From positions 1 to 64,000 of the IMG/VR virus record IMGVR_UViG_3300025389_000010: a DNA stretch of 64,000 nt. One strand, 5' to 3'. This document shows, one piece after another, positions 11,101 through 39,501 of this stretch. Each line of letters starts with the position of its first letter. Position 1 is the first letter of the stretch. The position numbers and the translations under genes are program-made. Below the pieces are notes generated by a model. It had not been told where the DNA came from, searched no databases, and saw nothing but the letters and a program-made list of their open reading frames with translations. The DNA comes from a virus (taxonomy: Duplodnaviria; Caudoviricetes).

Positions 11101-12630
11101 TGTATGGATATCGGTTTATTCTCGCCTGATAATCAAGTCATGGAACAGATGGCTTCCGATGGTCATTATTACGATTTACAAAAATTATCATCAATGACCG
11201 ATTTTGATGAATATTCTTTGAATCAATATATTTCATTAAGATTAATTGGTTGTTTCCCAGCCGTACCCACATGGTGTAAAGCTATAAAAACCGCAGGAGG
11301 TGTATGGGTTTCGTCAAATGAACCCACTGATATGATTTTAAATCCCGGTGATTATATTGTTTATAATCATCAATCATCTGCAAATTATACAACACAAAAT
11401 AATAATAACTTTTCGGTAAATGCAATATCTTTTACAATTAATAAAAAATTAAACGGTTGGGATTATGATACAAATTCATTTTCTCTTTCTGCCATAGGTG
11501 ATTCATATGGCGCAAAACCTTATTGGGGTAAAATGTATGCAAAGGATGAAACAGATTTTGTTAAAAAGACACTATACTTTGGTGGTCAAATAAGATTTTT
11601 AAATGGTTATGTTCCTGTTCATCAACCTGTAGTTTCTGATATGAAACTATCAAATGGTGGTTTTTTTGAATATACAAGCAGAGGCAATAAAAATTTAAAT
11701 TGGATACAACCTGTTTCGTTCAATGTACATTTAACATCTCAACAATGGAATAAACTAATTGTGAGTGAAGATTTTTCAAATTTATCTTTTGCATTACAGA
11801 CTAACAATTTATTAGATTTGATAACAGATTACACTTACGAACCTAGTGATATTGTTCTTGAAAGTTATTCACAATTTAGTCCAGCCCTTTATAATTTATA
11901 TTTAAGAAATCCAAGTTTTATATATAATGAAAATTTATATTATTTAAATTCTTGTAGCGAATCCTATTATATTTTTACATCTGGTGTTGTTCTGTCCGTA
12001 TCAGAACCGTACATGAATTTGGAAAACGTACATTATCCTTCAGTTGCAACTGTTGATTTCCCATCAAATATGGTGTCTAAAAATAAAATAAATTTTTATA
12101 TGACACCAGATAAATTAGGTGTTTCTTTTTATAGAGGAAAAGGATATAGTATTAATCTTGATCCAAATTCTTTATCTTATGTAAATTCAATAAGTGCAGA
12201 AAGATTATTTTTGGATATTAATAAATATGGACCAAGAAACAGAGGATTGACTAAAAAAGATCAAATTTCACCGGTTGTTATATCTGATATTGATAATAGA
12301 TGGATTTATGAACCATTTACATCATCATCAATGGCTGGTAAAATCAGAGATACGGTTCAAAATCAAAAAATGACACCATATATGTCAAATTTTGAATCTG
12401 ATTTATACAATAATATTGGTTTATCTTTACAAAATGATAATTTTAATTTCTGGAATGTTGATTATAATAATGAATGGAATGATAATAAAAATTATCCATT
12501 GACACTCAGAAAAGAAATAGCCACATCATCTTATAATAAGAGAATAGAAACACTCTTGGTAAATAAAGGAACATTAACAGAATGGAAAACCGATATATAC
12601 GGTAATAACTTTGGATTATTTAAAAATTAA
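8104..12630 (+). CDS. large putative virion protein with internal vWA domain, 1508 aa
   Basis: LVVLLDHSRT (MIDAS-like, about 10560), KKIVIISDG, ITCMDIG..MEQMAS; rest unassigned. Confidence 0.8.
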   Translation: MDISLSTQTPLSYVDWSNSIGSFAVASQEKYLSYLNNWYSFNSNLNYKNNLKKTTRDQYIQLIKDVSYLFNKDERDLFLSDIDYTKDEDLIYIIPYIVQKLKEISQIICAKREQLKYTNTKQSMIGTDQALEKILYEYVLKNFTKKEYSYTHVPISPLQNVFPELSAVNDGFFIEVEELYDTNTYFDSDPSVDVSKYVDITKLASYEPFADLSEDELMGLLVTRFLPKVSETPLSTIYNQYVQSFTTTASAVSGFASSQLYNRIAANQKYLSENVYALTAVKNSEVNNPDFVLNLSFQQGNNWFYWPSGDKITDVDTIGNIYKAIPINQSNLVLNRTVTGSSYFDSDLFFTDKNGTIEGAWLQGDRIEKSYDKISLHINAGEKRYFIYPFVGFNIDPKSFEFSGYSLNDDNNEIFNSLYKDTKQKVLTEYYNGTLPVSASFDIYLNQTNLLSAGAYAGYFSDQGDTIIKKASAQNFKDFSDYLYGDVEGAFLYKYDYTEIYVGSGDNDIIWPLGTYNAATSLIPITINQETCLPIPLNEIDPRHSMVGSIAGTDFQSADVIYKMQSRGGTDAIEAAWLGTGNISQLDIIKNAIQVYSTSAVNCADYIDGPILSSLSLLINPGDKVSFVWMDRDTPADEVFSFKQHAAGCPFGKTFPHDFYENQDYLNNNPLNGAEDFPLTKNPCTCRSVYYSPIGCQGNSPSDYNGIMDYLFADPQGVGSNLNLKTWVDTRNFNAFNSPQFAFYKLDGTLDQEVGFGTGKWQTGDGQPMILKTGRRYTYSRTNLRKTSSNAAVVPYLLVNYPYKQITVNCPKGYTNQTDLVVLLDHSRTETRSVDFIKNIASDLCSKILSNNADVKLSLISFAFKPEVKNYLNNSLGLILQNIASIQPYRNAVADYPAFLTDIYSALNSANDVLFNNKPYDNICDENDVTALCNNVSTQIIDNSGVALRDSNGVTLELNCPRKNAAKKIVIISDGQETVNIDKAVPYAKTLKDKGVEITCMDIGLFSPDNQVMEQMASDGHYYDLQKLSSMTDFDEYSLNQYISLRLIGCFPAVPTWCKAIKTAGGVWVSSNEPTDMILNPGDYIVYNHQSSANYTTQNNNNFSVNAISFTINKKLNGWDYDTNSFSLSAIGDSYGAKPYWGKMYAKDETDFVKKTLYFGGQIRFLNGYVPVHQPVVSDMKLSNGGFFEYTSRGNKNLNWIQPVSFNVHLTSQQWNKLIVSEDFSNLSFALQTNNLLDLITDYTYEPSDIVLESYSQFSPALYNLYLRNPSFIYNENLYYLNSCSESYYIFTSGVVLSVSEPYMNLENVHYPSVATVDFPSNMVSKNKINFYMTPDKLGVSFYRGKGYSINLDPNSLSYVNSISAERLFLDINKYGPRNRGLTKKDQISPVVISDIDNRWIYEPFTSSSMAGKIRDTVQNQKMTPYMSNFESDLYNNIGLSLQNDNFNFWNVDYNNEWNDNKNYPLTLRKEIATSSYNKRIETLLVNKGTLTEWKTDIYGNNFGLFKN

Positions 12631-14948
12631 CTTTCTTTTCTTTCCTGTGGTGTATAATGGAAAAACCTGTTGTGTTCAGTTGGAGTAGCAAGTAATATTG
12701 CAGTTACAATTTTATCTTTTAATGTTTCTTGATAGATATAAGACATCCATGTTTGCTCATATGGATATGCCCATTTTGTTTCTAAAAACATCTTTTTGTT
12801 TCCTTCTCTGGATACGACTTGAGGCCAATTACAGTAGTATATTTCACCAGTTGCATAAGGTAAACCATTAAACGATTTAATGTTTTTATATTTTAAGAAC
12901 GGTGCTTTGTTTGTGTCATCACTTGTCTTATTAGGTCTTTCTGGAAAGAACTTTTCTCTTATATCTTGCGGTACATTATGCCAAGCCCATTGTCTGGAAT
13001 TATCACCGAAGAACTCTGTAAAGTTCCATTTAAGATAATCAAATTTTTCATTCCAAATGATATTCATGACTTTATCATAAAGGTTATCAACCTTTCTCAT
13101 GAAACCATTTTTACAGAAGTTATCTTCACCGAGATAAAAGAACATATCATCTTCAAAAAAGAAATGATAATCAAAATTATTTTCATCTGCATGTTCAGAT
13201 ATATATTGGCGACCACCACATATACCAAGATTTTCTTTCATCTTTAAATGAGTAAAATCATATTTTTCACATAACTTTTTATAATCATCATATGTTTTTG
13301 AATCTGTGGAATTATCAATCAAAAACTTCTTTGGTTTATTTAAGAAGTTTTTATCATATTGTTCAAATGACTGACAAAGTTTTGAAAATTGTTCTGGAGA
13401 ATTATATGTTAATACATATAAAGCTGCATTTTTAATATCCATCTTATTAACAAGTGATATTATGTTTTTCTTATAATTTTTATCTTTTAAGTCCTCAAAG
13501 AAAGGCCATATTAAACCGTTGTCTTCTATAAGATACTGTGTTACTAATTCGGGATTATTATAAAGTATTATACTAAAGATACTTTCTTCTGTACCCATGT
13601 ATCCTTCCGATAAACTATTCTTTAAATGTCTATAGTAATGTGAATTGATTTCATTTATTCTCTCTTTCTTGCCACCAAAGAAACCTCCTCGACAAACATA
13701 TTTCACATAGTCTGTATTGGCATAATTTGCAATAGCACCTCTTTCAAATCCATGTATTTCTCCACCGCCCACATATGGATATGTCAAGAAAACAAATTCA
13801 TTATTCGCATCAATGAAATCAGGAAGGTTATTAAAAACCTTATCATGTGTGAAATAACCATAATGAACCGTATTTGCTATACCGGCATCTATCCAGAAAA
13901 AATATTCGCTTTCAAATGGGTTCCATATGGTAACGTTGTTTACCATAAACATTTTACTCATTACCACTGGATTATAACCTTCTAATGTAGCCTGTGGTGA
14001 TTCTCTTAACCAACTTGCCTGTGATAACCATTTCTCGTCTTTTCTTATTTCATTTACTTTATCTGTAAACTCAAACCATTCTTTCATGTCATCCAGACTC
14101 ATGAAGTTAAGAACAGTGTTTTCCTTCTTTCTATGTTTCCATATAAACTCTTCGTCAGCTTTATCAATGAAGATATACATTGGAACATCTGTTGCTAACA
14201 AAAGTGCCATCTTGTCCAAATAATCACTATAGCTACGCTTGAATGATTCGTTTATATCACCTCTTCCCATGTTCCATAATCCAGTAACAATCGTTACTTT
14301 ATTCTTTTCAAGTTTTGTTACTTGTGTTTTTGATGCTTTTTCTATATCTTTCATAGTAAATTCAGGAAATTTATTTTCAATTTCCTTTATAAAAATATCA
14401 GGTAATGGGTGTTCATTAATTTCAATATTTATTGTTAATTTTTCAGGTTTTTCTTTTATGAAAATACAATAATTGTGTCTTAAACACAATGGATAATATT
14501 CTCCATAACGTTCAAAGAAATTACTAAATGTTAAATCTTCTTGCTGGTGTGTTTCGTGTATATTATCAAATTGTGTGGTTTGTGATGGTAAGAAAGGTAC
14601 ACCAATTATAACATTTTTATTAATTTTTGATAATAATGTTTGTGCATCGAAAACAGATGTATGTTCTAACACATCACCTAATATTATAAGATCATATTGA
14701 TTGAAATCTATATTTAAAGAATTTATATCGCCAATATATAAATTTTTATATTTTTCTTTTAAGTTAAATTTAGTAACATAATCATAGAAAACTTCTACAC
14801 CATCAATATTTTCGTAACCTTCTGGTTTTAATAAATCCGAGTATGTTCCGCATCCAGCACTAATATCTAAAATTTTACAATTCTTATTGTAATTTTCTAA
14901 AATATATTCTTTTGTTTGTTGTTTAAAATATCCTGTGCTAAATGGCAT
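12627..14948 (-). CDS. fusion of SAM methyltransferase, HtrL/YibB-like glycosyltransferase and GT-A domain
   Basis: ILDISAGCG and IILGDVLEH; VTIVTGLWNMGR, SKMFMV, YFFWIDAG, RGGFFGG, GTEESIF; YVLTYNSP, NLGICGGRQ, FFEDDM. Confidence 0.75.
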   Translation of the reverse strand: MPFSTGYFKQQTKEYILENYNKNCKILDISAGCGTYSDLLKPEGYENIDGVEVFYDYVTKFNLKEKYKNLYIGDINSLNIDFNQYDLIILGDVLEHTSVFDAQTLLSKINKNVIIGVPFLPSQTTQFDNIHETHQQEDLTFSNFFERYGEYYPLCLRHNYCIFIKEKPEKLTINIEINEHPLPDIFIKEIENKFPEFTMKDIEKASKTQVTKLEKNKVTIVTGLWNMGRGDINESFKRSYSDYLDKMALLLATDVPMYIFIDKADEEFIWKHRKKENTVLNFMSLDDMKEWFEFTDKVNEIRKDEKWLSQASWLRESPQATLEGYNPVVMSKMFMVNNVTIWNPFESEYFFWIDAGIANTVHYGYFTHDKVFNNLPDFIDANNEFVFLTYPYVGGGEIHGFERGAIANYANTDYVKYVCRGGFFGGKKERINEINSHYYRHLKNSLSEGYMGTEESIFSIILYNNPELVTQYLIEDNGLIWPFFEDLKDKNYKKNIISLVNKMDIKNAALYVLTYNSPEQFSKLCQSFEQYDKNFLNKPKKFLIDNSTDSKTYDDYKKLCEKYDFTHLKMKENLGICGGRQYISEHADENNFDYHFFFEDDMFFYLGEDNFCKNGFMRKVDNLYDKVMNIIWNEKFDYLKWNFTEFFGDNSRQWAWHNVPQDIREKFFPERPNKTSDDTNKAPFLKYKNIKSFNGLPYATGEIYYCNWPQVVSREGNKKMFLETKWAYPYEQTWMSYIYQETLKDKIVTAILLATPTEHNRFFHYTPQERKES

Positions 14949-14984
14949 ACTTTATTTAATAAATTTTTTATTTATTCAAGAGTT

Positions 14985-15707
14985 TTATTCCTCAAATCTT
15001 TGAGAGTAAAGCTTGCTATTGTAATCGCTAAAGTGTGGCAAGTGAAAAGCTGCAAAATTACTTGTCGGTTTTATTTTTTTAACACCATTATAAGAAAATA
15101 TTCTATCCATCATATCACCATCTTCACCACCCCAACCTACATATTTTTCATTAAACCCACCAATATCCAACAATAAATAAGTATCGCAAATATAAACGCC
15201 ACCTAATCCACCAACATGACCATTACCAAATGGGCCGTTTTTTCTATTACCGGAATATGCATAAGACCAATCGGCTTTATCTAATATAAATTCATCATTT
15301 GCCAAATATTGATCTATTAGTGTATGATCAAGTTTAGCTAAATCAAAAGTTATAACATTTCCTTTTTCTAAACTTTTTATAAGATTCAAGAAATTATTAT
15401 AATCACTTTTATCAAAAAAAGCATCACAATCAATCATCATAAAAAAATCAGAGTTTGCGTTTTCTTTTAAAATAATATTTGTTTTTTCTGCTTTTTTATA
15501 TACACCCAGTGGATATGAAATATGAATAGCTTCATCTATAACTTTTTCCGGAGAAAAATCATAAAGTTTTACAAAAGAATTAATCCCATTTTCAAGTAAA
15601 AAAGAATTTAATTTTTTTAATTCTTTCCAAGCGAAATTTACATTTCTAACTCTTGTTGAATCTTCTTGACCATCATGCCAAAATTTCATGTTAATTGATA
15701 ATCTCAT
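14985..15707 (-). CDS. GT-A glycosyltransferase with GT7/GT2 C-terminal signature
   Basis: MMIDCDAFF (DxD) and GGFNEKYVGWGGEDGDM. Confidence 0.75.
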   Translation of the reverse strand: MRLSINMKFWHDGQEDSTRVRNVNFAWKELKKLNSFLLENGINSFVKLYDFSPEKVIDEAIHISYPLGVYKKAEKTNIILKENANSDFFMMIDCDAFFDKSDYNNFLNLIKSLEKGNVITFDLAKLDHTLIDQYLANDEFILDKADWSYAYSGNRKNGPFGNGHVGGLGGVYICDTYLLLDIGGFNEKYVGWGGEDGDMMDRIFSYNGVKKIKPTSNFAAFHLPHFSDYNSKLYSQRFEE

Positions 15708-16585
15708 GCGAATTCCTCCAATACTTTATAAAAACTTTTATTTATTTTTGTGTATTCTATCATATCCAAACCTTCAATGCTTAAGCCTTCATGCCACCAA
15801 ATTTCAAAATATTTTGGTTTGAATAAATAATTATGATTGAAATATATCACGGTCATTATATTTTCTTCAGCGTAAAGAACAGTTTCATTATCCAATAATT
15901 TATTTAAATAGTCAAAGAATAAATTACAGTATTTTTTCATTTGATCAATTTTGCCACCAAAAAATCCACCAATTATATGAAATACGTTATCATAATCTTT
16001 ATAATAAGATGAAGGGACCGTTCCCATCCAAAAGTTTTTTTGATTCTCTTTTAGACATATTACAAGTCCATCATCAGAATATTTTGCCATATTATTGATA
16101 AATTTATTATCGAATATTGTGGATTCGTAATATGTTTCCCAATAACCAGTGGTAAAAGGTCTGTATTTTGGAGGTATAATACCACAATGTGAAAGACCAG
16201 CATCAAACCAAAAAACATAATCGTATGATTCATCTTTGCATTCTTCCATACACCATATGAATTTAGAATATTGTATTTCAGAACACCTATCTGATTTTTT
16301 TACTTCATCTATGTTTTTTATTTTTTTTATTTTTTCTGAAAATTCAAAATTATAAAGATCATAAAGTTTAAATTTTATTTTATCTTCGGTAAAATTATGT
16401 TCTTCGTAAAAGAAATGTTTAAGATCTTCTATTTCATCCTCCTTTGTATAACAAACAAAATCAGCATCGGACATTTTAAGCAAAGATTTTAAAGAATGCC
16501 TATAATGTCCGCCTCTATTCATTCTGCCTCCCAAATCTGTACCAAAAAGATTTGAAAATATAGCTGTTACTATTTTAATTTTCAT
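15704..16585 (-). CDS. HtrL/YibB-like glycosyltransferase
   Basis: YSKFIW, YVFWFDAG, IIGGFFGG, AEENIM; resembles the middle domain of 12627..14948. Confidence 0.65.
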   Translation of the reverse strand: MKIKIVTAIFSNLFGTDLGGRMNRGGHYRHSLKSLLKMSDADFVCYTKEDEIEDLKHFFYEEHNFTEDKIKFKLYDLYNFEFSEKIKKIKNIDEVKKSDRCSEIQYSKFIWCMEECKDESYDYVFWFDAGLSHCGIIPPKYRPFTTGYWETYYESTIFDNKFINNMAKYSDDGLVICLKENQKNFWMGTVPSSYYKDYDNVFHIIGGFFGGKIDQMKKYCNLFFDYLNKLLDNETVLYAEENIMTVIYFNHNYLFKPKYFEIWWHEGLSIEGLDMIEYTKINKSFYKVLEEFA

Positions 16586-17513
16586 TTATTTCCTTTTTAA
16601 TTTTCTCCCAAAGGTTATATTTATAATTAGTTAAAAATTCATTTTTTAAATCCTTTATGGGTTTTTTATATTTTTCATATAGAGAATCTGCATTTTTATT
16701 TATTTCAGATATGAAATCTACCATTTCAGAAATAGATTTATTGTTTAAATAAAGAAAGCATTCTTCTGGTATATAATCTTTTATATTTTCACAACCGAGA
16801 TATATAGGAACAGTATCGGTTAAAATAACATCCCAAAATTTCTCACTTAAATAATTTTTCTGTATACAATTTTCAGAACATATTGAAAACTTATAGTTAT
16901 TTAATGCTACATGTTTATTCCAAATTTCACCTATAATATTTTTCCCATTTGGTTCCCAAAAAAGACCATAAATATCAACAAAATCATATTCACATAAATC
17001 TATTCCAAGGTCCGTTCTTTTTTTATTGTTTATTTTAAAAATATTAGGAACTTCTAGATTATCATAATGAGAAGAATAATCTTTTCTTACAATATAAGAA
17101 ATATTTTTACTTTTTTCAAAACTTCTATCAATGATATCAATGTTCCAACTAAATTCATTTCTATTATCATTTTCACCAGAACCACCGTAAAACATAGGGA
17201 CCATCCCTTCGATATATTCAGGAGAATTTGGATACATTCTTTTATCTGCTATAAAAACTTTTGAACAATATTTATGTAATATATCTCTATTTTCATTTGG
17301 TGACCATAATGGTTCCTGTGTAAAAAAGAAAGTTCTTTCCTTTGGTGTTTGAATTTTAGTCCAATCAGTTTTACCAAAAATAATCGTAAAATCTGGATTT
17401 TCTGTTACTAAATTAAAACCATCATGGTTAAAATCATTTAAAAATTGATTTCTGAATCTTTGATTTAAACTATAAGAATCTGTCCACCAACATTCTAATT
17501 TTATATTTTTCAT
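16575..17513 (-). CDS. GT10 alpha-1,3-fucosyltransferase-like protein
   Basis: YKFSICSENCIQKNYLSEKFWDVILTDTVPIYLG matches the alpha-1,3-FucT motif. Confidence 0.8.
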   Translation of the reverse strand: MKNIKLECWWTDSYSLNQRFRNQFLNDFNHDGFNLVTENPDFTIIFGKTDWTKIQTPKERTFFFTQEPLWSPNENRDILHKYCSKVFIADKRMYPNSPEYIEGMVPMFYGGSGENDNRNEFSWNIDIIDRSFEKSKNISYIVRKDYSSHYDNLEVPNIFKINNKKRTDLGIDLCEYDFVDIYGLFWEPNGKNIIGEIWNKHVALNNYKFSICSENCIQKNYLSEKFWDVILTDTVPIYLGCENIKDYIPEECFLYLNNKSISEMVDFISEINKNADSLYEKYKKPIKDLKNEFLTNYKYNLWEKIKKEINEN

Positions 17514-18112
17514 GTTATTTCTAAACCAAGAGCATTATATCTCGTATAACGATCTATTATGTATTTATAATTATATCCTTTTTTATCTTTCATTGCTCTT
17601 AATTGATCAGCATAATGACCGTCTGCGTTTCTGTGATCAATATATGGGATTATAGTGTTTTTCATTATTCTCCATCTTATCATAAAAGAACCAATATCAG
17701 CATGTCCTAATTGTAATCTGTAATCTTCACCGTAAAGTCTTATTTGTTCAGTAAGACCTTTTTTTTGAGAAAATAAAACTAAGTCTGTATCAGTGTTTTT
17801 TTCTTCATTAAAAGTTAATATGAGATCATGAGTAACGATATTGTCATCATCTAAAAAATAACACCAATCGTTATCATTTGCCATGATATCTGTTATAAAA
17901 TAGTTTCTTTGTTCGTGACCCCAAGCATAATTTGTTTTTATTTTATGATAGATAATTCTTTCATCTAAAAGAATATCTGTAAGATCATAATCTCCAGTTT
18001 TTTTACTACCTTCTATTAAATGCCAATTGAAATCGGTAACTTGATTTTTTATTGTAGAGTAAATAATAGGTACATAATTATACCGATACAATGGTGTTAT
18101 AAAATGTATCAT
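17510..18112 (-). CDS. GT2-like glycosyltransferase
   Basis: HFITPLYR, YFLDDDN, ADIGSF, ADGHY. Confidence 0.7.
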   Translation of the reverse strand: MIHFITPLYRYNYVPIIYSTIKNQVTDFNWHLIEGSKKTGDYDLTDILLDERIIYHKIKTNYAWGHEQRNYFITDIMANDNDWCYFLDDDNIVTHDLILTFNEEKNTDTDLVLFSQKKGLTEQIRLYGEDYRLQLGHADIGSFMIRWRIMKNTIIPYIDHRNADGHYADQLRAMKDKKGYNYKYIIDRYTRYNALGLEIT

Positions 18113-18147
18113 TACTTTATTTGGATCTACATTCTTTTTTTTATCAG

Positions 18148-19854: not shown

Positions 19855-19861
19855 AAATTTA

Positions 19862-21151: not shown

Positions 21152-21153
21152 AA

Positions 21154-21612: not shown

Positions 21613-21615
21613 ATT

Positions 21616-28960: not shown

Positions 28961-28961
28961 T

Positions 28962-29336
28962 TTATAAAAATTTTATATTTTTCTTATCGACATTAAAAGA
29001 AAGAAGTTTTGTTGATAAAGTAACAGGTGTATTTAATTTAGTTTTCATAATTTCAACCAAACCATCATAATTACCACTTTCTCTTATTAAGACTTCTTTT
29101 ATATATCCCAAACACATTCTTCCTATTTGAACATTTAAATCTATTTGCGGATCAAGATTGCAAAGACTAAAAATTAAAGGATTATATGAAGATATCGGGT
29201 TTTTAAAAGTTGAACACCATGTTCTAATTGTAAATGCGCCTCTGTCTGTATCCACATTTAAAATTTCAAAAGAAACATCGTCGAAATTTTCACTATTCAT
29301 ATGTAATAAATTTATAACAATAAATTTAAATGTCAA
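28962..29336 (-). CDS. hypothetical protein, 124 aa
   Basis: ORF track; overlaps the fibre gene stop. Confidence 0.65.
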   Translation of the reverse strand: MTFKFIVINLLHMNSENFDDVSFEILNVDTDRGAFTIRTWCSTFKNPISSYNPLIFSLCNLDPQIDLNVQIGRMCLGYIKEVLIRESGNYDGLVEIMKTKLNTPVTLSTKLLSFNVDKKNIKFL

Positions 29337-32300: not shown

Positions 32301-33172
32301 TTCCAGTTACCATTAATTGTTCTTTTTACTGATGAACTATCAGTTGAATAAGAATCACTAGGTTTTACACCAAAAGAAAAGTTTTGTGTATTATCAATAC
32401 TTAAAGCATTGTAACTATTATAATTTAATACCGTGTTGTCTATGTCTATTATACCATGAATAGATGATGCTGAGATTTGATCAGTAATCGTATTTTTTAT
32501 TATATTAGAATCTGATGATAAATTTTTTATTATTGTATTAAATGAACTTAAACTATAAAGGTTTGTTTTATTTGAAATTAAATTTTTTGCTGATGTTTTA
32601 ACTGTTGATGTTACATTCTCTATTTTTATAGTACCATTTGCTATTTGTTGTGCAATAATATCTGTCATTATAACCGGATTATTGACAGACGAAAACGATG
32701 TTAAATTTGTAACATTTATATTATTTGCTGTTAAATTATTAAAAGTTGTATTATTATCAAATTCAGTTTTGCTTTTAAAATAAATGTTATTGTTTATTGC
32801 AAGTTTATCAATTCCTGTTAATTTATTAGTTGATAATGTTGGTAAAAAAGAAAAAACAGAATGTAGAGATCCATTTATATCAAATTCAAAAATTGGAGAA
32901 GTATTATTATAACCTAATTTTTTACCTTTAATTGTTAAAGAAGAATTATTTGTAAATGTTCTAGAAGATGAATAAGATGAATTTTGAGTTATTAAAGGGA
33001 AATAATAATATTTTAAAATATCAGTAGTCGAATAACCCGGCGGGAGACCTAAACTAGGTTCAAGAACTTTTAAATTTACAAAATCCGGTAATTTAAGTTT
33101 AAATGAATTAACAGCGGTTAAATTAACCATAACTGTAGTTTCACTTATTGAAATTGGGTCTGTGTAATTCAT
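29333..33172 (-). CDS. putative tail fibre/adhesin with mucin-like Thr/Pro stalk and Gly-rich tip
   Basis: N-terminal part paralogous to 33186..35663; TPT-rich tract about 30155-30715; C-terminal GKGGNGGPGG, Cys-rich insert, GAT repeats. Confidence 0.75.
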   Translation of the reverse strand: MNYTDPISISETTVMVNLTAVNSFKLKLPDFVNLKVLEPSLGLPPGYSTTDILKYYYFPLITQNSSYSSSRTFTNNSSLTIKGKKLGYNNTSPIFEFDINGSLHSVFSFLPTLSTNKLTGIDKLAINNNIYFKSKTEFDNNTTFNNLTANNINVTNLTSFSSVNNPVIMTDIIAQQIANGTIKIENVTSTVKTSAKNLISNKTNLYSLSSFNTIIKNLSSDSNIIKNTITDQISASSIHGIIDIDNTVLNYNSYNALSIDNTQNFSFGVKPSDSYSTDSSSVKRTINGNWNNDSNESFTKNEVSKPFFKNLNSVFDYIITNNIRGNQINVYIYEDVETGTLTSITGPLSYQFHDTNDLKTNHPEVLTAGLSGGIFIWNTSTANTTPIGFSNLTIPDIDFININISGVYEIGSLIYSPPVKQYVKQKPFNASPHKISLRNYVCRNKNIANGNFSETGKPFNINDWTCIKSNMPANYHGIYFTNNKARVNLQNLCFEFYLNTNEANCLVFKGKTTIGNLTVALLGSSLYDGPIYVGGDSAYVKVKGTNQIDPYFLTPLTWSNAWKSIQGATGPDYYPGWGIAVVGQQNINARRSWVDPLVFNMAGGAIVEVFDETTNREIGRSSLLNSGIIVDGHFNSGSLYNLNKKCHLISSNYLFRSNNFSLSSQTSTYDNTTYIHSFNNSNGNNNFYNVKLTNSYNIYTPNNYGLTPWTIDVTQNLSRTITNDPNLAIKFGNYNDPNYIFNSSLRSVDMTNIVNSISARNNIEVIQNVSNNSNLFYIVGDKDLTLYNHAYYKINTPFDYNNSSYVLNYYSSYSYYYKNVETPDPSPSVTPTQTPSLTPTNTPTQSQTTTPTVTNTQTVSPSFTQTPTQTQTPTQTPTVTPTYTPTHTYTNTPTYSPSYTPSVSPSNTFTQTPTNTQTPTNTPTLSNNATPYPTHTPTKTQTPSHTFTRTPKSTPPPTPPVTPPSTPPKTPPVTPSHTRTQTRTPTRTPTYTRTGTQTPTHTPTKSPVFSKVSITIGQNINNIDIWTLLTTGLLPAGVTRSNYWDTTHPLELTVIINSSVTVGSTSTSSAAMTFDKSRGSSIQSGRDKIKIVVNGGAKIIGKGGNGGPGGTGPYQIGSQGYPGGPALDLTGSYYGFVINNNGLIAGGSGGDGGNKGGTTSVSKNGIYCDGKTYWSQQYSFCPTPATSDDCGKTRITSNCVQGDWHVSHQVCYTQYTCSYSVNVDTTGATGATGATGGGKQGNSGDAGAGGGSYGYDIVSYGNVQSYYSGPSGLTYGHNN
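29464..29499. repeat. perfect 9-bp tandem repeat (caccagttg)x4 encoding (Gly-Ala-Thr)n
   Basis: Direct reading of the sequence. Confidence 0.85.
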
Positions 33173-33185
33173 TTTATTATACTAT

Positions 33186-35663
33186 TTACAATATACTCGG
33201 AATATAAAAGTTTAAAGTATAATAAGGTGAAGACGGTACGGGTGATTTTATATGATAAACGGCATCACCAGTTATTTGATCATATACTTTTAATGAATAT
33301 GGATTTACATAGTATATTAAACTGCTGGTATTGTTTGATCTTATTTGGTTTGAAGCATTTAATAAATTTATATAACCAGTAGCATTTAAAGAATTTGTAT
33401 AATCTATACTACCATTTTTAGTAGAGTTTAAAACTGCTGGATTTGGATTAAAAGTAACCAAATTTTCATATTTTCCATTATATACCGATATATTTGAATT
33501 ATATCTATTCCAACTTATATTTTTTGAATTATATTCTTCTATACTAAAAGTCCAAGTTGCAAATCCATCTGAATTAAAATTAAAACTATTAAATGAATTT
33601 TTTATATTTAAAAATTTAAAATTTAAAAGATTTAAATTATCAGTATAAACTGACATTATATTTGTATTATAAGCATTATAATTATTATTTTTTGTAGTGT
33701 TGGAACTTAATATAAAACTATTTGTTATAAAAACATTATCACTATGTGTAATTTCAGAAGAATCTGCGATTGAATAAAAAGAATAACCATTTATAAAACC
33801 ATCTAACAATATGCTGGAATGATATCCTGTTTTATTACCAGAATAATTGGAATCATAAAGTTCAAAACTTGATTTTTTATCAATTGTTATTAAACTATCA
33901 CCTAAAACCGTTGGTGTGTTATTTTTATTACCAATTAATGCCAAGCCATAACCCGGAAAATTTTGTCCTGTAGTATAACCATAAGTTGCCCATGTATTCC
34001 ATGTTGTTGGTGTTAAATAATAAGGGTCATATAAAGTACTACCTACTACTGTTATTGATGAATTTTCAGTTGCATATATATAACCGGTAGTGTATTTAGC
34101 ATTTCCTAATAATGATATTGTTATATTACCAATATAATAGTTTCCATTTTTAAACACTAAAGGTTTTGTGTTGAAACTATTTGAAACAAATTCAAAACAT
34201 AAATTGCTTATATAAGTTGTGGTAAGATTTGAACAGTTAAAAACTATAGGAGTTGAATCAACTACATTTTTAGTATCAACGCTATTCCATATAACCGCAT
34301 CTCCTCCAAAATTATTAAAACCTAGTGTTGATAACGTAGAAAAATAAGTTCTTGCTATTATTTTTCTAGGTGCATCTTGAAATCCTCTGCTTGTACTATA
34401 ATAGGTTTTATTACTAGTTCTGGAACCTATATCATATCTTCCTTTTATAACCAAATTAATAAACCTTAAAGGCGGAATTGTTAAAACATTTACATTACCA
34501 TTAGTATTAGCATTGTGATTTTTATTCCAGAAAAATAAACCACCAAGCGTATTATTCAAACTAGGTTGTACTTGTGACGTAGTATAAAAATTTCCAGAAA
34601 TATTACCAGTATATGTATATTGATTATTTTGACCTAAAATTATATCTTCGTCTATATATATTGTAAGTCCAGAACCTTCCAATTGATTTGCACTTACATA
34701 ATCAAAAACAGACTGAATACTTTTAAAGTATGGTCTTAATACACTTGAATCTTCTGTTTTATTTAATGAATCCCATGCACCATTTGCATCTCTATTTATT
34801 GTCAAAGAATCAGTAGAATATGAATCAGACGGTCTAACCGCAAAAGAATAAGAAGATTGTCTTGGTGAATAACTTAATTGATTATTTTGATTGTAGTATA
34901 ATGGTGAAAAAGGATCTACGTCTATTTTACCATGAATATTATTTGCAAATATTTGATCCGCACTAATATATTGGTTAACTGTTAAATTATTTGATGTTAA
35001 ATTATTAACATATGAAGAAACAGCTGACAAACTAGCAGTGCTTAATGTACTTGAAAACACAGAATTTGCACTCAATGAGCCAATATTTAAATTTCCATAA
35101 ATCGTTAGATTTGACGAATAATAATTTGTATAATTTGATACAATTAAATTATAATTTGTTGGATAAATATTATTTACTGTTATGTTATTAGCTGTTAAAT
35201 TTGCAAAATTAACATCTTTATCGAAAAATGCATTCGATTTAATAAAGATACCGTTTGGGAAAATGGCAGATAATGCATCATTGTTTGAATTAGGTACAAT
35301 ACTAACAGCGGATAATTGATTTATAAAAGCGGAATTTGCTTTTAATGACCCGTTAATATCAAAATTAAAAACAGGATTTGTATTATTATAACCAATGTTA
35401 TTGTTTTTAAAAATTAAACTATCATCACCCGTAAATCTTCTAGAGGTTTGATACGTTGCGGTATTTGAGCCATCATCTCCACCAAATACGGGAAAGTAAT
35501 AAGTTGCACCAGTTGCTGTCGTATTATAACCTGTTGGTAAACCTAAACTTGGTTCCGCAAAAGGTAAGCTTATAAAATTATTAGCATAAGCATTATAATT
35601 TATATAAGGCGATAATGGTCGTAATTTTACATTATTGGCTAATGATGGTGGAGATGTCTGCAT
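33186..35663 (-). CDS. putative tail fibre protein, paralog of the N-terminal part of 29333..33172
   Basis: EPSLGLP.GY.TT, F.V.PSDSYSTDS, PYFKSIQSVFDY vs PFFKNLNSVFDY, NLCFEF, DPY.LTP.TW. Confidence 0.75.
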   Translation of the reverse strand: MQTSPPSLANNVKLRPLSPYINYNAYANNFISLPFAEPSLGLPTGYNTTATGATYYFPVFGGDDGSNTATYQTSRRFTGDDSLIFKNNNIGYNNTNPVFNFDINGSLKANSAFINQLSAVSIVPNSNNDALSAIFPNGIFIKSNAFFDKDVNFANLTANNITVNNIYPTNYNLIVSNYTNYYSSNLTIYGNLNIGSLSANSVFSSTLSTASLSAVSSYVNNLTSNNLTVNQYISADQIFANNIHGKIDVDPFSPLYYNQNNQLSYSPRQSSYSFAVRPSDSYSTDSLTINRDANGAWDSLNKTEDSSVLRPYFKSIQSVFDYVSANQLEGSGLTIYIDEDIILGQNNQYTYTGNISGNFYTTSQVQPSLNNTLGGLFFWNKNHNANTNGNVNVLTIPPLRFINLVIKGRYDIGSRTSNKTYYSTSRGFQDAPRKIIARTYFSTLSTLGFNNFGGDAVIWNSVDTKNVVDSTPIVFNCSNLTTTYISNLCFEFVSNSFNTKPLVFKNGNYYIGNITISLLGNAKYTTGYIYATENSSITVVGSTLYDPYYLTPTTWNTWATYGYTTGQNFPGYGLALIGNKNNTPTVLGDSLITIDKKSSFELYDSNYSGNKTGYHSSILLDGFINGYSFYSIADSSEITHSDNVFITNSFILSSNTTKNNNYNAYNTNIMSVYTDNLNLLNFKFLNIKNSFNSFNFNSDGFATWTFSIEEYNSKNISWNRYNSNISVYNGKYENLVTFNPNPAVLNSTKNGSIDYTNSLNATGYINLLNASNQIRSNNTSSLIYYVNPYSLKVYDQITGDAVYHIKSPVPSSPYYTLNFYIPSIL

Positions 35664-35672
35664 TATTTCTCA

Positions 35673-36050: not shown

Positions 36051-36067
36051 AATTTATATATTTATAC

Positions 36068-38080
36068 TTACTCCAAAACTAGGTTCAATGGTGTAACTAA
36101 TGTCATAATTGCACGTTTGAAGGTATCTCCTTCAATAGTACCCGTGCTTTGAACAATTTTAAAATTAGGTCCAACTTTAAAGTCACCCAATTCATTGGAA
36201 CTTGTAAAGTATACAACGCCCGGTGCATTAGTATCATATAAACCATCGAAAACAGCTTCGTTTTCGTTTATGGCTACACCACCGTATGCTGGAACAGCAC
36301 TAACCATTCTTGTACCGGTTCCCATGTATTCAAAGGTATGAGATCCTGTTTCCACCATGCTTCTTGCAAAGAAGTAAACCCATGCGCTTGAAAAATCTCT
36401 ACCTCTTAAATTTCTAATATTTAAATATGGTGTATTATATGTAAGTTGAATGTCATAAGCATTGGTATTATTTATACCATATTGTCCTGTAGAATTGTTT
36501 TTAACTACTGATAAATCAACCGTGAAAATTTTTGGTCTGTTGTTGAGCGGTAATGTTGGGTCTATATCACTTTCCATGATATAATCTGCATTACTTGTTG
36601 GATTAGGAACCGAAACCGTAAAACAAAGATTTGTATATGGAACCGTAGCGATAATATCGGGATGTGGATCATTCTTGGGGAATGGTACATATGCCATATC
36701 TTTAATTGTGAAAGTATCACCACCACTTAAATATCCATATTGATAATTATAACCAGTATTTGAGGTCGGGTCTACTCTGAAATCTTGTGGCATTACTGTA
36801 AATGTTCCACTTAAAATCGGCGTACCTAAATTAAAATAATTGGATAGATTTACAGGTGTACCATTAACGGTGCTTAGAGTTGGATAATTTGCCAATCCAG
36901 ACATTCCTCTTCCAATAAGACCAGAAAGACCAAATGTAGAATTTGATGTACTGATTGAACAACTTCCACCACTTTCACACACTATACCTTCATATGTCGC
37001 AACTGTGAAAATACTAACCAGCTGCGCATAACCATGATTTAAAATATGAAGACCTCTACCGCCTTGATTAACTTGTGTAAACGAATCAAGAACCATGCTT
37101 CTGAATTTACCAGTAACGAGAGATCCATCTATTCGCATACCAACACCAGCATCGTTTAAATTTTTGTCATCAAAAACCGTAGGTAATGCATATGATGTAC
37201 AACCTTGAACATATGGACTTACTTTTATATCAGGTCTTCCTACTGGAATGCTAAATAATGGTGTTAACCCCGAAGAATTCGTGCTTCCATAATATGCCAA
37301 ATTATATGCATTTATATTTTTGTTAGCATTTTGCGTATTTAAAGGATATGCAATAGCAGCAGGTGGTGATATATCTGTTAATCGATTTGCTGTTGTATAA
37401 TAACTTGGATCGCTTGGATCTACACCATTTTCTGTTAATTTTCTATGCCCTCTGAATGTGAAACCCCAAACGTAACATGCGCTGTTTACCCACAAAATAT
37501 CTTTATCTACATTTAATGGGCTTATTGTAGTTCTTCTTAAATTATCTCCAATCAAAGAAGTATTGGGTGGAAGATATACTGGATTATTTTCAACATAATT
37601 ACCACTTCTTACTAAGATAGACCATTGTTTTGGACGAGATGCTGGATTTGGATCGTTTACATCAACTAAACCGGCATTTAAAGCTGCTTGTTCATTTGCA
37701 ATACGTGCAGCTGCATATTTAATTGTACGATATGGTAATTCTTCGTTTCTTCCTCTTTCTGGATAATCATTAGCATCAACACCACTCATGGATACGTAAA
37801 ACGTATTTGCCATTGGATTTTGGTGTGTGTTAATATAATCTAAAAATGAATCTACCGTAACTTGACGAGTTACAACATCAGTATTGGTTAAAACTAAAGT
37901 TTCTTTACCTACTATAGGACTACCTTGAATATCTAATTGACCAATCGAATTTGATAAAAAAGAATATGGTGATACTTTTCTAGTTATATCCTGCTCTATA
38001 ACTAATAAATCATTATTTATATCTATTGGTTGGATCGGGGGTCCACCTGATGGTAATTCTGGAATTCTTGTATATGACAT
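36068..38080 (-). CDS. putative tail fibre/baseplate protein with beta-helix-like region
   Basis: FYVSMSGVD..PYRTIKYA..ILVRSGNYVENNP..SLIGDNLRRTTI..SPYVQGCTS, as in T4-like cyanophage-type structural proteins. Confidence 0.7.
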   Translation of the reverse strand: MSYTRIPELPSGGPPIQPIDINNDLLVIEQDITRKVSPYSFLSNSIGQLDIQGSPIVGKETLVLTNTDVVTRQVTVDSFLDYINTHQNPMANTFYVSMSGVDANDYPERGRNEELPYRTIKYAAARIANEQAALNAGLVDVNDPNPASRPKQWSILVRSGNYVENNPVYLPPNTSLIGDNLRRTTISPLNVDKDILWVNSACYVWGFTFRGHRKLTENGVDPSDPSYYTTANRLTDISPPAAIAYPLNTQNANKNINAYNLAYYGSTNSSGLTPLFSIPVGRPDIKVSPYVQGCTSYALPTVFDDKNLNDAGVGMRIDGSLVTGKFRSMVLDSFTQVNQGGRGLHILNHGYAQLVSIFTVATYEGIVCESGGSCSISTSNSTFGLSGLIGRGMSGLANYPTLSTVNGTPVNLSNYFNLGTPILSGTFTVMPQDFRVDPTSNTGYNYQYGYLSGGDTFTIKDMAYVPFPKNDPHPDIIATVPYTNLCFTVSVPNPTSNADYIMESDIDPTLPLNNRPKIFTVDLSVVKNNSTGQYGINNTNAYDIQLTYNTPYLNIRNLRGRDFSSAWVYFFARSMVETGSHTFEYMGTGTRMVSAVPAYGGVAINENEAVFDGLYDTNAPGVVYFTSSNELGDFKVGPNFKIVQSTGTIEGDTFKRAIMTLVTPLNLVLE

Positions 38081-38133
38081 TATATATATTTATGTTTGAG
38101 ATTAATATTTTTTTAATTTTTTTTTATTAAAAA

Positions 38134-39501
38134 TTACATAGATGTTGGTGAATGTGTTGGTCTTGGCGTTCTTGGTGGATAATACGTTGGAGTTCTTTGT
38201 GGTGTTCTGGTTACTCTTGGTGTTTTTGTGTTGGTTATAGTAGCTGTCGGAGTTTGCGTATTTGTAGGTGTTGGTGGTATTGTCGGTGTTACAGTTGGTG
38301 TTTCGGTGTTTGCTGGTGTAGCGGTTGGTGTTGGTGTGTTTGTCGGTGTTTCCGTATTTGATGGTGTATTCGATGGTGTATTCGACGGTGTTGCTGTATT
38401 CGATGGTGTTAAACTGCTTGTCGGTGTATTTGTACTTGTTGATGTAGTTGTTGGTGTAATTGAAGACGTTGGTGTTTGTGATGAAGTAATAGACGGTGTC
38501 GGTGTGTGAGTTGGTGTTCTTGTTGGTGTAGTTGTTTTTCTGGGTGTTTTTGTGTTCGTATTTGAAACCGTAAGATGTGGTGTTCTTGTTGCTGATGGTG
38601 TTGTTGTTGGTGTTGCCGTGTGAGAAGTTTGTGTGAAAGATGCAGTAACAGTTCTTGTTGGAGTTTGAGTTACCTTTGCAGTACGTGTTGGTGTCTTCGT
38701 AGGTGTAACCGTTTTTGTAACTATAGGCGTTCTTGATTGTGTTAAAGTTTGTGTTCTTGTAATAGTATTTGTGGGTGTATTTGTTGGAGTTGTTGTAATT
38801 GTATAAGAAGGTGTAACTGAAGGTGTTGGTGAAGGAACTGGATTTAAATCACCATATGGTATATAAAAATTAATTTCATCTACTTTTTCTTTTGTTAGAT
38901 TTAAACTTATTATACCCAAGTCATTAATATCATTCTTCATCAAGAATGATATATTGAATTTTTTTGTATCTGGATTATATGTAAGTTTTGGATCTTCTTT
39001 ATTGCCGTTAGAATTTGACCAATTACTAACAGTATTAAAATCTAAATTTACATTTTCAGTTATAAGATTTTTAATGTTATTTGTATGTAAATCAACAACA
39101 TTAAAAAATAAAGAAAAGGTTATTTTTGGTTGATTTACACCAACAGTTTCATTAAAACCACAATAATATATTTTGTTTTCAGATTCATCAAACCAATAAT
39201 CTATATTCGTACTTGATAATTGTGTAAAAAAATCAAACTTACTATAAGGTTGAATATTTGAATTTTCATCTAAAAAGTATTTTTCAAAAATATATCCACT
39301 TGTTGTTTGGATATAAAGAGTATCATAAAAAACATCTATTTTTGTTATTTGATTGGAAGATAAATCATAAAAAAAATTAGGTTCTAATTCTTGATATTTT
39401 AAATATATCGAAGATAAAACAAGAGGAGCAGATAAGGTGTTATTATTAGCATCCCTTAACCAAAATTCACCAACATTGTTCTTATCGTTATAATGATCCA
39501 T
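38134..39501 (-). CDS. protein with globular N-domain and about 235-aa C-terminal mucin-like Thr/Pro/Ser tract
   Basis: From [13 protein letters not shown] (about 38840) to the stop the sequence is almost all T/P/S/N repeats. Confidence 0.8.

Follow-up and report, generated by a model that had tools for sequence, protein, structure and literature searches.

GT60 glycosyltransferase genes accompany long Thr/Pro-rich tracts of tail-region proteins across many unrelated phages, and the phages that carry them therefore probably sugar-coat their own appendages. For the phage described here, we consider it likely that a phage-encoded, cytoplasmic system attaches mucin-type O-glycans to the phage's own appendage proteins. 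The source record is a 225,756-bp IMG/VR phage genome with a CheckV completeness of 100%, and the window, that is, the whole stretch of DNA analysed, is its first 64 kb. The phage is T4-like, as judged by its Gp23 major capsid protein (3.9e-89), gp25, gp6-like protein, gp21 protease and gp44 clamp loader. Gene order showed a co-oriented block of 44 kb, which has baseplate wedge genes at its head and a glycosyltransferase (GT) cassette of seven contiguous, co-oriented genes (12627-21151, minus strand) at its end. Both the seven-gene cluster and its placement in one block with two tract genes had been proposed from the sequence alone, and both were confirmed. The features are:

12627..14948, minus strand: three-domain protein, 773 aa (methyltransferase, HtrL_YibB and GT-A-like domains)
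14985..15707, minus strand: GT-A protein, 240 aa, with DCD and WGGEDGD motifs, beta-1,4-Gal/GalNAc-transferase-like (Glyco_transf_7C, PF02709, 5e-10)
15704..16585, minus strand: HtrL/WlaTC-like GT, 293 aa (ESM Atlas; blastp to the 773-aa cassette protein)
16575..17513, minus strand: GT10-type fucosyltransferase, 312 aa (PF00852, 1.2e-13)
17510..18112, minus strand: small GT2-like GT-A protein, 200 aa (ESM Atlas only)
18148..19854, minus strand: two-domain GT, 568 aa, RXYLT1_C/exostosin-like (aa 129-286) and GT2 (aa 325-484)
19862..21151, minus strand: GT60-like polypeptide HexNAc-transferase (predicted), 429 aa, first gene of the cassette (PF11397; phrog_24687, 1e-173)
29333..33172, minus strand: candidate acceptor 1, 1279 aa, with Thr/Pro tract (phrog_10745 on the C-terminal domain)
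33186..35663, minus strand: paralog of the N-terminal body of acceptor 1, 825 aa (blastp)
36068..38080, minus strand: tail-fibre protein, 670 aa, flanked by the two tract proteins (phrog_17885, 3e-52; four further tail-fibre PHROGs)
38134..39501, minus strand: candidate acceptor 2, 455 aa, with Thr/Pro tract to the C-terminus
54350..56687, minus strand: baseplate wedge genes, gp6-like and gp25 (PF04965, 1.4e-14; Gp6-like_1st weak, E 0.0029, below cut-off)

The cassette comprises one GT60 domain, seven further GT domains with family or ESM Atlas matches, a ninth that is GT-A-like by predicted-structure similarity only, and one methyltransferase. The sequence-only reading had counted about nine GT domains plus a methyltransferase. 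This was a fair estimate, with reservations about the ninth domain and about the one called GT47-like: in the 568-aa protein RXYLT1_C passed its cut-off (36 bits against 27), but the Exostosin/GT47 score (20.6 bits) stayed under its cut-off of 33.4. Its proposals of a GT60-like lead enzyme and of GT2, GT10, HtrL-like and GT7C-like domains all held, the first through the PF11397 match and the others through family or ESM Atlas matches. The GT2 domain of the 568-aa protein scored 32.5 bits (cut-off 23.3). For the 200-aa protein a Pfam search gave no match, and the ESM Atlas placed it with viral GT2 clusters (feature score 0.98, structure TM 0.77-0.82). The 312-aa protein matched the GT10 C-terminal catalytic domain (PF00852, 51.6 bits; cut-off 23.9) and carries the motif SENCIQKNYLSEKFWD, which we take to be the conserved GT10 FucT motif. 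The 773-aa protein is built of a class I SAM methyltransferase (aa 15-110), an HtrL_YibB domain (aa 217-469) and the GT-A-like domain (aa ~500-773). It is a conserved partner of GT60, with a homolog in 77 of 80 GT60 loci and 40-42% identity to its counterparts in the isolated jumbo phages XacN1, Xoo-sp13 and RAS14. The 293-aa HtrL-like protein also belongs to the conserved core; it was found in 31 of the 80 loci, and homologs lie beside GT60 in the same three isolates (tblastn, 27-32% identity). HtrL-like and GT2-like clusters related to cassette proteins occur in Nucleocytoviricota too (ESM Atlas).

The 429-aa enzyme scored 229.4 bits against PF11397/GT60 (cut-off 21; E 1.1e-67), and this match was confirmed on the genome DNA. 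In an alignment with 20 homologs of 60-78% identity, D106-S107-H108 was invariant, and DxH in place of the GT-A DxD is the signature common to GT27 and GT60 (PMC7185993). In Dictyostelium and Trypanosoma cruzi, mucin-type O-GlcNAc is started by GT60 enzymes, which are without a C-terminal ricin-like domain (PMC8724618). When an AF2 model of the phage enzyme (pLDDT 89.5) was compared with the folds in the PDB, the top 29 entries were all ppGalNAc-Ts (GT27), with Z of 19.4-23.0, about 275 residues aligned, an rmsd of about 3.5 A and about 12% sequence identity, whereas other GT-A folds reached at most Z 18.2. Hence, as modelled, the fold of the enzyme is closest to the mucin-type polypeptide GalNAc-transferases. 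Alignment and model also showed a conserved beta-rich C-terminal domain of ~90-110 aa (aa ~320-429). In the fold comparison, made with the model as a whole, no ricin-type lectin domain was recognised, and a transmembrane segment is absent from the sequence of the enzyme.

The 1279-aa protein consists of an N-terminal body (aa 1-810), a tract (aa 819-1007) and a Gly-rich C-terminal domain. Its tract is 189 aa long (nt 30152-30718; T 37%, P 23%, S 9%). The 825-aa paralog shares 32% identity with it over ~830 aa (E 1e-80), without the tract or the distal domain. In the 455-aa protein an N-terminal domain (aa 1-212), homologous to part of VWA-protein homologs in relatives, is followed by a tract of 237 aa (aa 219-455, nt 38137-38847; T 39%, P 19%, S 10%) that runs up to the C-terminus. 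By comparison, Thr makes up ~7% of the remaining proteome. The sequence-only reading had put these tracts at ~185 and ~235 aa and had noted that both open with PxPSP[ST], and it was right on both points (PDPSPS and PVPSPT). Such an opening is however not a family signal, because among 98 tracts of relatives only 7 start with the strict motif. The whole genome contains four tract-bearing ORFs, two of them beyond the window (72436-73851 and 162411-172424), and the Gp23 major capsid protein is not among the four. The two window tract proteins had no homologs among isolated phages; going by gene position only, they are presumably virion proteins.

To test whether GT60 and the tracts occur together, tracts were scored in DNA as matches to the pattern TPTxTPT. 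They were present in 22/25 GT60-positive viral records and in 2/19 GT60-negative relatives of the same capsid clade (Fisher p 2.6e-7, with counts taken without phylogenetic correction), so that the co-occurrence across related phages expected from the sequence alone was indeed found. Three GT60-positive records with just 0-2 pattern matches had a completeness of 54-66%. Among complete genomes, tracts were found in 7/7 GT60-positive against 0/2 GT60-negative ones; the latter two (211 kb each) showed 1 and 0 pattern matches and HtrL was absent from both. In the reverse direction, GT60 was present in 15 of 39 tract-bearing viral contigs, an arbitrary sample, and in 10 of the 16 that measured at least 100 kb. 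A tract ORF lies within 10 kb of GT60 in 47/80 loci, and the ORF immediately upstream of GT60 bears a tract in 22/79, compared with 5.9% of all ORFs. In most relatives the cassette lies inside the baseplate/fibre module. The pairing of GT60 and tracts recurs in at least four capsid lineages, in records with close (69-83% identity) or distant (31-37%) T4-like capsids, in complete genomes without a gp23 match, and in Rak2-like phages, and the domains to which tracts near GT60 are joined fall into at least 15 unrelated families, with 49 singletons besides.

GT60 was found in only 4 of 50,697 records of the isolate collection; the isolated phages that carry the gene are XacN1, Xoo-sp13, RAS14 and CM1. 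The Rak2-like XacN1, Xoo-sp13 and RAS14 share the core cassette and carry tracts (51, 51 and 22 pattern matches; 0 in the reversed control), and the core cassette of XacN1 is 27-49% identical to that of the window. XacN1 virions contain at least two Schiff-positive glycoproteins, as bands not tied to named proteins (PMC5852040).

The same genes could be read otherwise. The tracts might be plain, unglycosylated flexible linkers, while the cassette builds or alters another glycan: a free or lipid-linked oligosaccharide, or a host envelope polysaccharide or LPS that is altered during infection, blocking superinfection or aiding release. Five complete tract-bearing phage genomes carry neither GT60 nor HtrL, so tracts can exist outside the GT60 system, and HtrL/WlaTC, GT2 and GT10 enzymes are characteristic of loci for LPS/LOS and capsules, as would be expected of such linkers and such a cassette. 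This explanation however leaves the two-way, cross-lineage co-occurrence of GT60 and tracts and their frequent adjacency unexplained, and gives no account of close relatives that miss both cassette and tracts. It also sits poorly with a lead enzyme from a polypeptide-glycosylating family whose predicted fold is ppGalNAc-T-like, and with the cassette itself, in which Pfam and PHROG profile matches revealed no membrane-anchored GT, flippase or polymerase. We therefore judge it unlikely.

Two further explanations keep the cassette active but change its target. One is that it glycosylates phage DNA, giving a hypermodified base against restriction, as T-even enzymes or GT-A enzymes linked to C5-MT/5mYOX do. 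Phage GT-A enzymes do hypermodify DNA (bioRxiv 10.1101/2023.12.21.572611), one domain of the 773-aa protein has a weak PHROG match to DNA beta-glucosyl-HMC alpha-glucosyltransferase (E 5e-4), and XacN1 has its GT60 gene just downstream of the genes for DNA polymerase, RNase H and NUDIX. Known DNA-sugar pathways, on the other hand, cluster with base-making enzymes (bioRxiv 10.1101/2023.12.21.572611), and the complete genome is without known enzymes that make glycosylatable bases: ThyA/dCMP-hydroxymethylase (PF00303) and C5 DNA methyltransferase (PF00145) were absent while their controls worked, and Tet_JBP (PF12851) gave no match, in a search whose positive control matched nowhere either. The cassette stands in a baseplate/fibre block in the window and in most relatives, and a DNA target predicts no link to Thr/Pro tracts. 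To our knowledge, moreover, GT60, GT10 and HtrL are all outside the known DNA glycosyltransferase families. A DNA target thus appears highly improbable. The other explanation, which we find very doubtful, is that the enzyme acts like Skp1 Gnt1, on hydroxyproline or on one specific site of a phage or host protein, the tracts being modified otherwise or not at all. The enzyme is soluble by prediction and would act in the cytoplasm, as Gnt1 does; the tracts are 19-23% proline, and chloroviruses hydroxylate proline in repeat proteins. No P4H-type 2OG-Fe(II) oxygenase (PF13640) was found in the complete genome, however, and GT60 is associated with long, variable, Thr-rich stretches that sit on many unrelated proteins rather than with one conserved acceptor. 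Taken together, the co-occurrence and adjacency, the ppGalNAc-T-like predicted fold, the lack of DNA-base enzymes in the complete genome and the Schiff-positive XacN1 virions favour the idea, already put forward from the sequence, that the GT60-led cluster acts on the phage's own Thr/Pro tracts; the tracts of complete genomes without GT60 speak against it.

For O-glycosylation of the phage's own appendages we propose the following course, in which we infer the acceptor, donor sugar, order of steps, glycan structure, virion location and biological role. The soluble GT60-like enzyme (19862-21151), as a retaining GT-A enzyme with a DxH metal site, would place the first sugar onto hydroxyl groups of Thr and Ser in the disordered (T-P-T-x)n tracts, with host UDP-HexNAc, most likely UDP-GlcNAc, as donor. 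The conserved core, that is, the 293-aa HtrL-like protein together with the HtrL and GT-A domains of the 773-aa protein, would extend the glycan. A variable outer set would finish it, comprising the beta-4-Gal-T-like GT-A protein, the GT10 fucosyltransferase, the GT2-like proteins, the RXYLT1/GT47-like domain and the methyltransferase, so that the tract glycan would presumably be fucosylated and methylated. The product would be dense glycan brushes along tracts of ~190 and ~240 aa, which may serve as a tether for the distal domain in the 1279-aa protein or as a free end in the 455-aa protein, and which the brushes would keep extended, hydrophilic and protease-resistant. As the sequence-only reading suggested, they may form stiff stalks that serve in adhesion or shielding.

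More tentatively, we speculate that GT60-started mucin-type O-glycosylation of virion appendages could be a widespread, so far unrecognised trait of large tailed phages, with a conserved core (GT60 and HtrL-type) and a fast-changing outer set of GTs and methyltransferase. Metagenomes contain at least 7,500 distinct clusters of GT60 proteins, which, together with the at least four capsid lineages, suggests such breadth. If so, modular Thr/Pro "mucin stalks" would carry a glycan coat particular to each phage, as a counterpart in phages to the diversity of O-antigens, and prokaryotic viruses would hold a pool of the family that starts eukaryotic mucin-type glycosylation. Most phage glycosyltransferases are assumed to target DNA or host surface glycans, and we know of very few systems, mainly mycobacteriophages, in which structural proteins of the phage were demonstrated to be glycosylated. 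On the present reading, a second and far more widespread route of virion glycosylation would exist in abundant aquatic T4-like and jumbo phages, recognisable by its acceptor signature (TPTxTPT tracts) and by its initiating enzyme (PF11397), and GT60/GT27 mucin-type chemistry would be placed in bacterial viruses. Thousands of unnamed environmental proteins would gain a function, and the modelling of tail-fibre and decoration proteins of uncultured phages would change, because about a quarter of their length may be glycan brush. The reading would also bear on phage adsorption, stability and the stickiness of particles in water. The hypothesis is directly testable, since four isolated phages carry the GT60 gene.

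Among known systems, the protist GT60 enzymes (Dictyostelium Gnt2, T. cruzi OGNT and Skp1 Gnt1) have PF11397, DxH and a GT-A fold nearest GT27 in common with the phage enzyme. Gnt2 and TcOGNT act on Thr/Pro-rich, mucin-like acceptors, as predicted here, and Gnt1 is soluble and cytoplasmic, as the phage enzyme appears to be from its sequence. Unlike them, the phage enzyme comes from tailed phages and would work in the bacterial cytoplasm without a Golgi anchor, has the extra conserved beta-rich C-terminal domain, and travels with HtrL-type partners absent from protist pathways. The animal GT27 ppGalNAc-Ts are the best structural match of its model and share DxH, and the animal mucin-type pathway likewise involves dense Ser/Thr/Pro tracts and stepwise extension, including beta-4-Gal-T-like and fucosyltransferase families; the phage enzyme differs in its CAZy family, in its low identity, in its place outside the secretory pathway and in that no ricin-type lectin domain was recognised. 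Mycobacteriophages decorate their own structural proteins with their own GTs, which gives the virion a glycan coat, with glycans at the C-termini of capsid and tail-tube subunits (Freeman et al. 2023, Cell Host Microbe, as summarised in PMC12619734 and PMC10568470). The phage here would likewise use its own GTs on its own structural proteins. Its major capsid protein, however, has no tract, and long Thr/Pro stretches in baseplate/fibre-region proteins are the candidate acceptors instead; the lead enzyme is a GT60, the phages are T4-like or jumbo, and the hosts differ. In the self-glycosylation of giant viruses (chlorovirus PBCV-1 Vp54, mimivirus fibrils), virus-encoded multi-GT clusters with methyltransferases make virus-specific virion glycans for which host machinery is not needed (cited in PMC5852040), as we propose for our phage. 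Their hosts are eukaryotic, however, and their linkages other ones (atypical N-glycans in chloroviruses). We know of no GT60 and Thr/Pro-tract pairing described in giant viruses. Finally, secreted bacterial and fungal glycoside hydrolases have O-glycosylated (PT)n linkers between globular domains, which are extended and protease-resistant; these linkers are glycosylated during secretion by membrane-bound mannosyltransferases, whereas the route proposed for the phage would use a cytoplasmic GT60 enzyme.

As the sequence-only reading had described, seven contiguous genes of glycosyltransferase (GT) and methyltransferase type form a cassette at 12627-21151, with the following assignments (from Pfam unless another source is named):

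19862-21151, minus strand: PF11397/GT60, 429 aa (229 bits; phrog_24687, 1e-173)
18148-19854, minus strand: RXYLT1_C plus GT2, 568 aa (Exostosin/GT47 match sub-threshold)
17510-18112, minus strand: GT2-like, 200 aa (ESM Atlas only)
16575-17513, minus strand: GT10 fucosyltransferase, 312 aa (motif SENCIQKNYLSEKFWD)
15704-16585, minus strand: HtrL-like, 293 aa (ESM Atlas and blastp)
14985-15707, minus strand: GT-A, 240 aa (Glyco_transf_7C match; DCD and WGGEDGD motifs)
12627-14948, minus strand: SAM methyltransferase, HtrL_YibB and C-terminal GT-A-like domain, 773 aa (GT-A-like by predicted-structure similarity only)

The count of about nine GT domains stood, one of them by predicted structure only; the match behind the label 'GT47-like' is below threshold. 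The phage is a T4-like myovirus. Its record (225,756 bp, 32% G+C, 100% complete by CheckV), whose first 64 kb make up the window, encodes the major capsid protein Gp23 (E 3.9e-89), the baseplate proteins gp25 and gp6-like, the prohead protease gp21, the clamp loader gp44 and a scaffold protein. The capsid protein reaches only about 35% identity at most with isolated phages, cyanophages being best, and hundreds of viral contigs carry capsids 64-80% identical to it. From 56687 (gp25) to 12627, all genes of at least 100 aa are on the minus strand, with short or overlapping junctions. Matches to the T4 late-promoter motif TATAAATA numbered 15, where chance alone predicts 20, which is uninformative on cassette timing, and scans for promoters and terminators over 12-30 kb gave counts at chance level. 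Elsewhere in the window, an ORF at 62528-62974 (minus strand) with a TnsA-like endonuclease N-terminal domain (E 7e-21) separates the gene for the gp21 prohead protease from the ORF that follows in the head module, and has the appearance of an inserted mobile or homing endonuclease. A gene at 4856-6301 (minus strand) matches DUF2828, DUF7788 and, weakly, VWA_2 (E 0.0029, below the cut-off), and lies under a local G+C peak (4001-6000, 39% vs about 29% in the flanks).

Of 80 viral loci that encode relatives of GT60, 77 contained a homolog of the 773-aa protein and 31 one of the 293-aa HtrL-like protein. In the isolated jumbo phages XacN1, Xoo-sp13 and RAS14, homologs of the GT60, 293-aa and 773-aa proteins adjoin one another, at 46-49%, 27-32% and 40-42% identity, respectively. 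The middle of the cassette is variable: the window holds GT10, GT7C-like, GT2-like and RXYLT1-like genes, and relatives hold GT34, FkbM-type and rhamnosyl-O-methyltransferase-type genes together with unassigned ORFs. In many relatives the cassette lies within the baseplate/fibre module, where the gene order is gp6-like, 2036-aa protein, VWA protein, a protein with a Thr/Pro-rich mucin-like stretch (tract), GT60 ... HtrL protein, tract protein, LamG protein and PKD protein; the window has the same module genes in a changed arrangement, still as one co-oriented block. At 12627-12630, the 1508-aa VWA protein gene (plus strand) and the last cassette gene (minus strand) converge, their 3' ends overlapping by 4 bases. 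Since the VWA homologs of relatives are located upstream of the cassette in the same orientation, a local inversion or rearrangement in the window is indicated. A DUF5856 protein (21154-21612, minus strand), with a PHROG match to a starvation-inducible regulator / DNA-binding protein, is encoded 2 nt upstream of GT60; its homolog adjoins the cassette in only 2 of the 80 relatives.

No transmembrane segment is present in the GT60-like protein, which would therefore act in the cytoplasm. Its D106-S107-H108 motif is invariant across 20 homologs (60-78% identity), and DxH replacing DxD is a signature common to GT27 and GT60 (PMC7185993). In Dictyostelium and T. cruzi, mucin-type O-glycosylation is started by GT60 enzymes with alpha-GlcNAc (PMC8724618). 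Searches of PDB sequences with the protein and with a 20-sequence profile gave no usable match, so a fold search was needed. For the confident AF2 model (pLDDT 89.5), the top 29 PDB entries were all mucin-type polypeptide GalNAc-transferases (GalNAc-T1/2/4/7/10/12, PGANT9 and Toxoplasma GalNAc-T3; Z 19.4-23.0, about 275 residues aligned), and generic GT-A enzymes ranked after them (Z <=18.2). Sequence, motif and modelled fold place the window enzyme in GT60, with its activity predicted. The phage protein ends in a beta-rich, conserved domain (about aa 320-429), and no such domain is described for protist GT60 enzymes. Metagenomes contain the family in great abundance: among 8,000 candidates examined, 7,526 clusters (90% identity) matched at E <=1e-5, with no informative names.

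Position and composition bore out the two long mucin-like tracts reported for the same block. One spans aa 819-1007 of a 1279-aa protein (29333-33172; tract nt 30152-30718; 37% T, 23% P) and the other aa 219-455 of a 455-aa protein (38134-39501; tract nt 38137-38847; 39% T, 19% P), with Thr at about 7% in the rest of the proteome. The PxPSP[ST] opening said to be shared is present in both, but it opens only 7 of 98 tracts in relatives and was rejected as a conserved tract-opening signal. Beyond the window, the genome encodes two further tract proteins: one of 471 aa (72436-73851, minus strand), whose Gly_rich_2 domain is flanked by tracts, and one of 3337 aa (162411-172424, minus strand), with very long TQ/TP linkers between three Laminin_G_3 domains. 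A GGTSAGAP motif in the N-terminal region of the latter recalls S8/S53 peptidases, with no Pfam support. As expected from ACN/CCN codons on the minus strand, G+C skew turns strongly positive over both window tracts (+0.23 at 30001-32000, +0.30 at 38001-40000), and such a flip is a quick compositional flag for these tracts. A perfect 9-bp tandem repeat in four copies (29464-29499) codes for (TGA)n in the Gly-rich C-terminal domain of the 1279-aa protein. BLAST detected no mutual similarity among the Gly-rich domains of three tract proteins, and Pfam and PHROGs searches of the globular parts gave no informative match other than phrog_10745 (no known function) and the Gly_rich_2 domain of the 471-aa protein.

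Gene context suggests that both window tract proteins are candidate virion proteins: they flank a tail-fibre gene (36068-38080; strong PHROG matches, 3e-52) and are located between baseplate genes and a LamG protein. Residues 1-810 of the 1279-aa protein have a tract-less paralog adjoining at 33186-35663 (32% identity over about 830 aa, E 1e-80), such that one gene consists of the paralog body, a Thr/Pro tract and a Gly-rich distal domain and the other of the bare body. The same pairing occurs in the closest relative genome, as an 838-aa ORF without a tract and a long ORF with tracts; no orthologs of the 1279-aa protein were found in the complete relatives lacking GT60. An AF2 prediction of its N-terminal body, built from 4 sequences only, was unusable (pLDDT 43.7). 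The 455-aa protein shares homology, in its N-domain, with part of the VWA-protein homologs of relatives. In tblastn against 50,697 isolated phage records, this domain, the 825-aa paralog and the 1508-aa VWA protein had no match, so that virion status is not transferable from isolates.

The proposed check of whether GT60 and Thr/Pro-rich genes occur together across related phages was positive. A tract ORF lay within 10 kb of GT60 in 47 of the 80 loci, and the ORF directly upstream of GT60 bore a tract in 22 of 79, vs 5.9% of all ORFs of at least 100 aa in these loci. With ACNCCNACNNNNACNCCNACN as the DNA pattern for TPTxTPT, 46 of the 47 tract-positive loci and none of the 33 negative ones were recovered, and the pattern was then applied to whole records. 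Tracts were found in 22/25 GT60-positive records (the three exceptions being 54-66% complete) vs 2/19 GT60-negative records, both of these 10-14% fragments (Fisher's exact test, p = 2.6e-7, on counts uncorrected for relatedness). The negative set had been reached via the capsid gene and comes from the same clade and the same kinds of samples. Among complete genomes, all seven GT60-positive ones carried tracts and neither of two GT60-negative relatives did (211 kb each; 1 and 0 pattern hits; both without HtrL). In the reverse direction, PF11397 was encoded in 15 of 39 records with TPTxTPTxTPT, an arbitrary contig sample, and in 10 of the 16 among these that reach 100 kb. Only 4 of the 50,697 isolated phage records encode a GT60 protein.

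Records with both GT60 and tracts form four groups: phages with capsids 69-83% identical to that of the window, jumbo genomes of about 300 kb with capsids only 31-37% identical, complete genomes without any gp23 match, and the isolated Rak2-like XacN1, Xoo-sp13 and RAS14 (51, 51 and 22 pattern hits; reversed-pattern control 0). The globular domains fused to tracts near GT60 belong to at least 15 unrelated families, with 49 singletons besides, so that the tract itself, rather than one conserved gene, travels with GT60. Five complete or near-complete viral genomes (G044, G048, G055, G065 and G066) have long TPTxTPTxTPT tracts without PF11397 or HtrL. In these genomes, either the tracts bear no glycans or another set of enzymes serves them.

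Purified XacN1 virions were found to contain 'at least two glycoproteins' by Schiff staining, with no band assigned to a protein, and the authors suggested that the phage's two annotated GTs make them (PMC5852040). One of the two, ORF334, is the GT60 homolog. ORF330 and ORF332 ('hypothetical protein', 'predicted ORF'; AP018399.1 216551-219788) are homologous to the HtrL/GT-A and HtrL-like proteins of the window, and so are the corresponding proteins of Xoo-sp13 and RAS14; these three phages thus encode more glycosyltransferases than annotated. A carbamoyltransferase gene lies between GT60 and the HtrL-type genes. The XacN1 tracts lie in ORF369, 370 and 372 beside tail sheath genes and in the paralog family ORF232-237, with pattern hits also inside ORF384.

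We consider it probable that the cassette glycosylates the Thr/Pro tracts. The soluble GT60 enzyme would, at a late stage of infection, prime Thr/Ser of the disordered tracts from host UDP-HexNAc, probably UDP-GlcNAc; the HtrL-type core would then extend the first sugar, and the variable enzymes would complete the glycan, possibly with beta-1,4-Gal, then alpha-1,3-Fuc on GlcNAc, then O-methyl capping. No GDP-mannose dehydratase is encoded in the complete genome; phage-made GDP-fucose was therefore rejected, and donors would come from the host. Mucins and glycosylated PT linkers provide the analogy for the product, which would be an extended, hydrophilic, protease-resistant brush about 50-60 nm long that either spaces a distal domain from the particle or is itself a freely ending tail. 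Which sugars are added, in what order and to what purpose is what we infer from these data.

That the cassette might instead modify a host glycan, with the tracts as unglycosylated linkers, would fit the five complete tract-bearing genomes without GT60 and HtrL, but leaves the two-way, cross-lineage association and the adjacency unexplained, and we regard it as unlikely. Glycosylation of phage DNA is less probable still: a weak PHROG match (E 5e-4) and the DNA-polymerase neighbourhood of the XacN1 cassette point towards it, whereas the complete genome has neither a ThyA/dCMP-hydroxymethylase homolog nor a C5 DNA methyltransferase, in searches whose controls worked, nor a Tet_JBP match, in a search without a positive control, and known DNA-sugar GTs cluster with base-making enzymes (bioRxiv 10.1101/2023.12.21.572611). 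Hydroxyproline as the acceptor in place of Thr/Ser is also improbable: the P4H-type oxygenase PF13640 was not found in the genome, and this route was rejected.

Our literature search returned nothing linking GT60/PF11397 to phages or to Thr/Pro tracts. The GT60/tract system is widespread, unannotated and directly testable in isolated phages. Glycosylation of the tracts by the cassette, as we propose it, would work like mucin-type O-glycosylation and like mycobacteriophage virion glycosylation as described in papers citing Freeman et al. (2023). The latter involves another enzyme family and another phage type, and its acceptors are capsid and tail-tube C-termini, unlike those proposed for the window.
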